Below, piece after piece: positions 21,045-22,110 of a DNA stretch of 64,000 nt. The DNA is from Octopus sinensis (taxonomy: Eukaryota): positions 43,710,001 through 43,774,000 of the forward strand of contig NC_043012.1 in the NCBI RefSeq assembly GCF_006345805.1, in the 5' to 3' direction. A program made the translations under genes and the position numbers. The notes beneath the pieces are model-generated. The model was not told the origin of the DNA. It ran no database searches and worked only from the letters and a program-made list of their open reading frames with translations. The stretch's first letter is position 1, and each line of letters begins with the position of its first letter.

Positions 21045-21350
21045 TTCTTATTTACATTATTTACATTTGACGAATATTTGTCCTCACAACGTTTCGGCTG
21101 ATATACACTCCAGCCCTCATCAGGTGTCTTGGGGAAATTTCGAACCTGGGTTCAAATTCCCAAGGTATTTTTCGATGTTATTATTGCTATTACTATTATT
21201 ATTATTATTATTATTATTATTATTATTATTATTATTATTATTATTATTATTATTATTATTATATTATTATTATTATTATTATTATTATTCAGGTTACTTG
21301 GGGTTAGTAGTCCGTGCTCTTAACCACTACGTCATATGCCCGTGGGCAAT
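21045..21350 (-). mobile_element. tRNA-head + (AAT)n + hammerhead element, left copy (B box deleted)
   Basis: Minus strand: GGGCATATGACGTAGTGGTTAAGAGCACGGACTACTAACCCCAAG, then (AAT)n, then GACAC-CTGATGA-G-GGCTG...CAGCC-GAAA-CGT-T-GTG (21085-21128). Inverted homolog of 21757-22110. Confidence 0.8.
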
Positions 21351-21351
21351 T

Positions 21352-21760
21352 CCACCGGCGACGCTGCCGCTCGCTCACGAACGCGACGGGCGGACGGAGA
21401 ACGCCGAGCTAAGGCATGCGCCTTGAGGTTGAGACGCTTTTGGAGAACAACTCGGGTCCGGCGACGGTTCCGGCTTAGAGGCGTTCAGCCGTTATCGCTC
21501 AGAAGCAGCCTAGCACCACCGCTCTATCGAGCGAGCGCGCAAACCGTTGCTCTGATCCTGCGGTTCCTCTCATACTGGACGGGATAGCCATAGCCGAGTT
21601 GACGTTGCCGGCGTCCGCCTAAGATCGGCAGAAACGTCGGCGGCGGCGACGGATAACGCGCGAGTGCGCCGATGCCACCGCACACCGAACCCCCTACGCG
21701 ACTCGGGGCACCGCGTATGCCCGATGCATCGGTAGGATAAAACTAACCTGTCTCACGACG
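21352..21760 (-). pseudogene. 28S: 28S rRNA 3'-region fragment (includes the sarcin-ricin loop), dispersed pseudogene
   Basis: Minus strand contains CGTCGTGAGACAGGTTAGTTTTATCCTAC, CCAGTATGAGAGGAACCGCAGG (SRL with a C>T change) and GGCTGAACGCCTCTAAG in the eukaryotic LSU order, separated by GC-rich expansion sequence. It forms a GC island in AT-rich DNA. Confidence 0.9.
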
Positions 21761-22110
21761 TAGTGGTTAAGTGCGCGGGTTACTAACCCCAAGATTCTGA
21801 GTTCGATTCCAGGCAGTGACCTGAATAATAATAATGATAATAATAATAATAACAATAATAATAATAATAATAATAATAATAATAATAATAATATAATAAT
21901 AATAATAATAATAATAATATAATAATAATAATAATAATAATAGGAATGAGAACCCAGGTTCGAAATTTCCCCAAGATACCTGATGAAGGCTGGATGGTAT
22001 ATCAGCCGAAACGTTGTGTTACCAACAAACAAGATGAGGACAAATACCCGTCAAATGTAAATAATGTAAATAATGTACGTAATTCCTCATCTCTTAAATA
22101 TAGAACTGTA
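21757..22110 (+). mobile_element. tRNA-head + (AAT)n + hammerhead element, right copy
   Basis: A-box-like GTAGTGGTTAAG, B-box GAGTTCGATTCC, (AAT)n at 21824-21941, then hammerhead GATAC-CTGATGA-A-GGCTG gatggtatat CAGCC-GAAA-CGT-T-GTGTT (21975-22020). The tail is shared with 39706-39836. Confidence 0.85.

Follow-up and report, generated by a model that had tools for sequence, protein, structure and literature searches.

A 28S rRNA fragment between the inverted arms of a Penelope-like element in Octopus sinensis

Penelope-like elements (PLEs) have been described, as far as the accessible text of the published accounts goes, as leaving inverted copies with a one-sided tail of 30-40 nt and as carrying hammerheads (PMC8557442, PMC4209133, PMC3846280). 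The consulted part of one account treats their inverted ends as unexplained (PMC8557442), and unrelated sequence captured between pseudo-LTRs has been reported in a rotifer (excerpt of PMC3846280). The capture of rRNA by a retroelement is known from 28S/LINE-1 chimeras, for which the portions of the literature available to us give 18 loci with 28S segments of 50-482 nt, 83% of them sense, and invoke template switching or ligation; 28S-derived SINEs are mentioned in the same literature. The locus described here combines features of both systems. It lies on contig NC_043012.1 of the Octopus sinensis assembly, in a window by which we mean the whole analysed stretch of 64,000 nt, and all positions refer to that window.

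The composite insertion occupies 21048-22108 and consists of two head-to-head arms with a piece of 28S rRNA between them. The main (left) arm (21048..21351, minus strand) is identified by family alignment as the 3' pseudo-LTR of a Penelope-like element; it covers unit positions 1-246 plus four letters from the ORF side, lacks the terminal tail and has internal deletions of 23 and 18 nt. On the minus strand it contains a minimal type I hammerhead motif (21083..21128, descriptor match), an (AAT)n tract (21178..21289) and a tRNA-like head (21290..21347), which opens with the self-complementary GCCCACGGGC and shows an A-box-like motif at 21324-21334. The inverted (right) arm (21757..22108, plus strand) is a pseudo-LTR running from about unit position 18 to 281, with the terminal tail present. 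Its tRNA-like head (21757..21823, B-box-like motif at 21799-21810) is followed by an (AAT)n tract (21824..21942), a minimal type I hammerhead motif (21975..22020, descriptor match) and a tail of about 35 nt (22074..22108) that is found in this arm alone. The arms align with each other at 84% mean column identity. An earlier note, made from the letters alone, had proposed this order of hammerhead, (AAT)n tract and tRNA head, then 28S rRNA, then a mirror copy, and the arm alignment, the Rfam match of the 28S piece and the hammerhead descriptor confirm it. By eye, no TSD is visible at 21047/22109; TSDs are optional in PLEs according to the section of PMC3846280 consulted.

The minimal hammerhead descriptor matches in both arms and gave no match in 20 shuffled windows. 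The predicted right-arm hammerhead has all pairs in helix I (5/5) and helix II (5/5), and the predicted left-arm motif has an intact core and helix II (5/5), with helix I shortened by deletion (3/5). In the family, 25 of 42 copies with an intact core pass the helix test of the descriptor. An Rfam search detected neither a hammerhead nor a tRNA, and single-strand folding of heads and hammerheads gave z values between -0.1 and -1.9, an uninformative result. In the heads, A- and B-box-like motifs are visible and ARAGORN called four of six heads tRNA-like at a relaxed score of 60, but at its default score it found no tRNA in the heads, and the 23-nt deletion has removed the B box of the left arm.

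The arms have numerous relatives in the genome. The head letters at the left junction recur in 1,305 exact copies, and a 23-nt head motif has 5,398 matches with at most one mismatch. Several copies have a common upstream sequence encoding a GIY-YIG-like stretch; a search with this upstream coding sequence yielded 150 scored matches of 4,879 candidates, and the unit lies directly downstream of the ORF in most of 30 protein-selected loci. At L082 a 551-aa frame is followed by the unit and preceded at its 5' end by an inverted unit, and L087 has the same layout, with the ORF in the middle between units. An RVT_1 match was obtained for L083 (E 6.5e-9); the RT part of L082 scored E 3.7e-4, below the cut-off, and in a comparison with the Atlas L082 showed a similarity of 0.95-0.97 to RVT_1/HTH_animal clusters and of 0.96-0.97 to RVT_1/HTH_animal/GIY-YIG clusters. 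EN+ PLEs are recognized by a C-terminal GIY-YIG endonuclease in which CxC lies between the motifs. In the family frames examined, no GIY-YIG domain was matched directly by Pfam; the motif VYSIPCSCG..YKG was seen by eye in a family frame, and GIY-YIG is present in 47% and 26% of the members of two similar Atlas clusters. Since the unit stands directly 3' of an RT-bearing ORF, it is a pseudo-LTR, and, judged by sequence comparison, the element from which the arms derive is an abundant, autonomous PLE. The Penelope-like origin put forward in the earlier note is thus supported by the RT-bearing ORF upstream of the unit in related copies. A classification of the flanks as separate SINEs was rejected, as each is the 3' pseudo-LTR of an autonomous PLE whose copies adjoin such an ORF. 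The tRNA-like head with its preceding self-complementary GCCCACGGGC is family-wide and is seen downstream of the ORF at, for example, L053-L079; it is a tenable reading that the pseudo-LTR of an autonomous element may here carry a tRNA-like Pol III head beside a fold-back hairpin. The family is not named in the accessible parts of PMC13282606 or PMC4758252.

Inversion is the common state of this family. Direct head-to-head palindromes number 759 in the genome and 2 in the control. A sample of 99 was taken from the top of the list of 1,305 motif copies, on contigs C1 and C2; 68 of these have an inverted arm, which is joined within 30 nt in 62 copies and across a longer gap in six, and 17 of the 62 direct joins have their meeting point exactly at GCCCACGGGC. 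Of the 43 pairs that reach the 3' end, 39 carry the tail on exactly one arm (two on both, two on neither), as do 18 of 18 pairs of a second, partly overlapping set. The insertion obeys this one-arm tail rule, its left arm ending at unit position 246 and its right arm at 281. The "two divergent elements" of the earlier note are hence correct as a layout, but they form the two arms of a single, ordinary PLE insertion, which makes the divergent arrangement in itself nothing special. The window also holds a second, short inverted copy of the family (39707-39892), whose tail and hammerhead on the minus strand adjoin some 50 nt of plus-strand ORF.

The sequence between the arms (21345..21760, minus strand, sense) is a 416-nt internal piece from the 3' part of 28S rRNA, as established by Rfam and rDNA comparison. 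It matches the Rfam family LSU_rRNA_eukarya (RF02543) over 21449-21600 with E 4.4e-23, begins just 3' of the peptidyl-transferase-loop motif GGGTTTAGAC and is over its whole length about 90% identical to longer rDNA fragments of the genome, which bears out its earlier identification as 28S rRNA. Compared with R2-linked modern copies, it has 27 substitutions in 408 aligned sites and a deletion of 14 nt. The rRNA and the left arm are both sense on the minus strand, as had been noted before, and the captured 28S precedes the 3' element end of the main arm on its 5' side and shares its sense.

A genome search showed that both junctions occur only at this locus: the right-junction pattern has a single match, the locus itself, and the second of two matches to the left-junction pattern is a chance match in an unrelated gene. 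The 416-nt query gave at least 41 matches (40 of 106 candidates scored), and among the 40 fetched loci only the one described here has arms around the 28S piece. The boundaries common to these matches looked like those of a family and proved to be longer rDNA fragments. An amplified 28S-headed SINE of the SINE28 type was likewise rejected, given the unique junctions and the presence of arms at one of 40 28S loci. The chimera is a single-copy, neutral relic and shows no sign of spreading or function.

Three independent, side-by-side arrivals, or a mis-assembly, could produce a unique locus of this kind in a genome with thousands of family copies (5,398 head matches), and no piece bridges the left junction among the contig pieces listed for runs X2 and X3. 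The right half of the locus is covered by a 208-nt contig from run X2 (another study), which spans 21591-21798 with three differences and single-copy-like depth and extends 38 letters past the right junction, and by run X3, which holds 21578-21751 without a difference; the raw reads of run X21 contributed one read. The insert's divergence of 5-7% from rDNA excludes a chimeric rRNA read. Together with the exact abutment of the parts, their head-to-head order and a one-arm tail that matches the family rule, these data make chance adjacency and assembly error very improbable.

At the left junction, the seven letters AATTGCC (21345..21351, minus strand) belong both to the 28S rRNA and to what the element carries on its ORF side. 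The 28S side reads GGAATTGCC, then ATTC, and ORF-bearing copies read CATAATTGCC, then CACGGG; in 35 of the 45 ORF-side copies counted, TAATT stands before GCCCAC. If the head is taken in its palindromic form instead, only TGCC (4 nt) would remain in common. In 7,299 rRNA letters (18S, 5.8S and most of 28S), AATTGCC is found once sense and once antisense, that is at 2 of 58 TGCC sites (33 sense, 25 antisense). The GACG at the right junction (21757..21760, plus strand), which the earlier note described as shared, is a 4-nt homology with the variant head of the left arm, but amounts to 2 nt against the family majority, because most heads read G at the relevant place (G in 98 of 110, A in 11 of 110) and most copies have GGCG. 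The informative junction is the left one, whose 7-nt homology the earlier note missed. Compared with the expected centre of a standard palindrome, only about 3 nt have given way to the 28S piece.

In our assessment the locus probably represents one old PLE insertion, during which the reverse transcriptase left the element's RNA for a 28S rRNA template before folding back. The enzyme would prime at the target and copy the element RNA from near its 3' end, passing along the plus strand through the hammerhead, the (AAT)n tract and then the tRNA-like head. Just past the GCCCACGGGC hairpin, the cDNA end GGCAATT would pair with AAUUGCC of 28S rRNA, at the place where many family copies turn round, and the rRNA would then be copied for about 410 nt. 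Synthesis would halt 6-7 nt before a base that probably carries an RT-impeding methylation. Over 2-4 nt, the new end would anneal to the head in antisense form, supplied either by the growing cDNA itself or by another cDNA started from the opposite end of the target, and extension from there would complete the inverted arm. The identity of the parts, their family context, the uniqueness of the junctions, the junction homologies and the similar divergence are observed; the single event, the RNA template and the order of the steps are what we infer. The proposal of one composite insertion by template switching, made in the earlier note, is favoured by the one-arm tail (39 of 43 pairs), the matching divergence of the parts and the 7-nt microhomology, although a second case of rRNA in the family, L205, leaves room for a later patch.

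The three parts of the locus have diverged to a similar extent. The right arm differs from the family column majority at 11 of 235 sites (4.7%) and the left arm at 9 of 175 (5.1%), and other arms (n=65) have a median of 6.7%. The 28S piece is 6.6% diverged from modern copies, or 4.9% after subtraction of seven changes common to at least three other fragments. By these counts the parts, each at about 5%, would be of compatible age, which is necessary for one event and is not a proof of it. The two window arms have no derived change in common over 152 sites. Pairs of arms within one locus (n=20) have 0.0086 shared changes per site and pairs from different loci (n=2,609) have 0.0050; in so star-like a family, shared arm variants do not separate fold-back from two-ended priming.

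The second case, L205:1625-1668 (contig C1, near 210.63 Mb), is a 44-nt 28S piece, 95% identical and antisense to the element, which sits inside the pseudo-LTR, immediately 5' of the hammerhead core, in place of about 26 nt. It is the one locus with rRNA among 150 PLE loci. Its antisense orientation implies that rRNA also enters family copies by a route other than a first-strand switch, and it fits a second-strand switch or a later patch. Counted from the rRNA side, a PLE lies within 300 nt in 2 of 133 loci, neither at an inversion junction, and an enrichment of rRNA in this family is not established. At L260:1498-1519 and at L106, 28S sequence lies near the 3' end of a family copy, at distances of 40 nt and 59 nt; this adjacency, away from inversion junctions, may be due to chance.

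These observations bear on an alternative in which the palindrome formed first and a break at its hairpin-prone centre was later patched with 28S, from rRNA-derived cDNA or from rDNA, through TGCC (4 nt) on one side and 2-4 nt of microhomology on the other. Substrates for such a repair exist, with at least 759 head-to-head palindromes in the genome and rRNA in 133 of 149 fetched loci (overlaps and long units included), and both the loss of only about 3 nt at the palindrome centre and the antisense piece of L205 in the same family would agree with it. A patch would nevertheless have to gain the further match AAT by coincidence (2 of 58 TGCC sites), and the divergence of the insert matches that of the arms. 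Its target is also tiny, and none of the six gaps longer than 30 nt among the 68 inverted copies is rRNA. We regard a later patch as unlikely.

The common strand of the left arm and the rRNA also allows that a chimeric RNA came first. A 5'-truncated copy in an rDNA unit at GGAATTGCC could have been transcribed by Pol I read-through, and the product then mobilised by the element's RT, truncated and inverted, in a 5' transduction; RNA ligation is a variant of this scheme. The same orientation and the same 7-nt junction would be expected, because microhomology can give rise to the 5' junctions of Penelope elements; for the mobilisation of unrelated sequence in trans, pseudo-LTRs are enough (both from the passages of PMC3846280 available). 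However, this history requires two events, the junction patterns occur once, the rDNA loci screened include no rDNA-embedded source copy, and ligation has no need of microhomology. We hold read-through or ligation to be decidedly unlikely; the chimeric 28S-head-hammerhead template suggested in the earlier note is possible in view of the shared strand but less likely than a switch during cDNA synthesis.

If the reverse transcriptase did switch and fold back, the trapped rRNA could serve as a strand tracer of the unsolved transposition cycle of PLEs. As only sense rRNA is abundant, the strand with antisense 28S would be the RT product, and this strand might, with due reserve, be read as antisense main arm, antisense 28S and sense inverted arm. 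Tentatively, a single round of synthesis by the PLE reverse transcriptase would begin on a sense transcript, pass to a foreign RNA template and then turn back onto the cDNA just made. Head-to-head inversions would in that case do without an antisense transcript, whose involvement is proposed in the consulted part of PMC3846280. The value of the locus is mechanistic, in that a captured abundant RNA fixes strand polarity and the order of synthesis; one locus cannot settle the mechanism, and L205 has the opposite polarity.

Whether RNA or DNA served as the template for dispersed 28S sequences may be reflected in a modification footprint. The first T of GGGTTTAGACC is changed in 7 of 27 dispersed 28S fragments that are not R2-linked (A in four, C in two, G in one; L030, L098, L102, L103, L108, L109 and L118), compared with a conserved background change rate of 111/2,585 (4.3%; p 1.1e-4, 0.02 over 181 columns), and in none of the 14 R2-linked long copies covering it. 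The count leaves out the window copies L001, L051 and L088, the reference L006, the duplicates L014, L016, L018, L092 and L104, and the foreign-type L110, L114 and L115. We assume that this T corresponds to human m3U4530, which holds if Um4498 is the A-loop U. The literature, as far as accessible, describes m3U as a cause of reverse-transcriptase misincorporation, and the changes resemble such misincorporation, a possible RT fossil. A replicate set beforehand at the presumed m1A site failed: none of nine short fragments is changed at any of the three A's (one of 32 loci overall), and no fragment 5' ends lie at the m1A site. For this reason the m3U footprint is suggestive only. It concerns other dispersed fragments and not the piece in the window, which starts 6-7 nt 3' of the presumed m3U. 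A pile-up of 5' ends after the presumed m3U is unconvincing, with three ends at most 7 nt after it and five in the 32 nt before it; around it, the downstream word occurs alone at 12 places and the upstream word alone at 11.

Other dispersed rDNA has a different character. At least 15 loci on many chromosomes carry 28S starting at TAGCCAAATGCC, which we take to be the R2 target site (L002-L004, L008, L010, L013, L015, L017, L020-L022, L024, L094, L100 and L119). Most lie behind a common element-like 3' end, many run into the spacer, and five have an 18S gene about 5-10 kb further on; they are perhaps off-array R2-plus-rDNA units that arose by 3' transduction. An 18S family search with a stricter filter returned long units only, and the idea of dispersed rDNA units ending at one fixed 28S point was rejected. 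On the unplaced contigs C12762, C5780, C10266 and C8703 (L110, L114, L115 and L089), a foreign-type 28S, 75-83% identical to that of the host, and a gene apparently containing very short introns are found; the assembly thus probably includes DNA of another organism. Contig C17 has two 28S pieces, oppositely oriented, in three very young and almost identical copies (L243-L245), one ending at a poly(A)-like run.

Among known fusions of structural RNA and mobile sequence, we take the rRNA-headed SINEs to be represented by SINE28 and the tRNA-SINE/hammerhead repeats by Schistosoma Sm-alpha. Like the locus described here, both join rRNA or tRNA-like sequence to a mobile 3' end, and Sm-alpha includes a hammerhead; in contrast, the present chimera is single copy and its tRNA-like unit is part of an autonomous element. 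Non-LTR retrozymes, in the portion of the report available (bioRxiv 10.64898/2026.07.22.740005), are likewise short PLE-derived units with a type I hammerhead, but are organized in head-to-tail tandem arrays. A retrozyme array was therefore rejected for the locus, where the arms are inverted and the unit is, elsewhere in the genome, attached as the 3' end to an ORF-bearing element.

With EN+ PLEs, as described in the accessible text of PMC8557442, PMC3846280 and PMC4209133, the locus and its family share a pseudo-LTR that bears a minimal type I hammerhead and lies 3' of an RT-bearing ORF, an inverted 5'-truncated copy, a tail of 30-40 nt at one end and palindromes at the inverted junction. The locus differs in that its copy, which is without an ORF, has captured 28S rRNA at the inversion junction, and in that the pseudo-LTR of its family starts with a tRNA-like head. 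Within the open-access literature covered, no account came to light of rRNA captured at the inversion junction of a PLE, or of a pseudo-LTR with a tRNA-like head.

In its rRNA content, the locus resembles the 28S/LINE-1 chimeras, which, in the descriptions accessible, also have a few hundred nt of 28S in sense orientation 5' of a retroelement 3' end. Here, however, the partner is a PLE of putative GIY-YIG type, neither poly(A) nor a TSD is seen, and a second, inverted arm closes the other side of the insert. The capture of rRNA, known for LINE-1, would thereby extend to the telomerase-related reverse transcriptases of PLEs.
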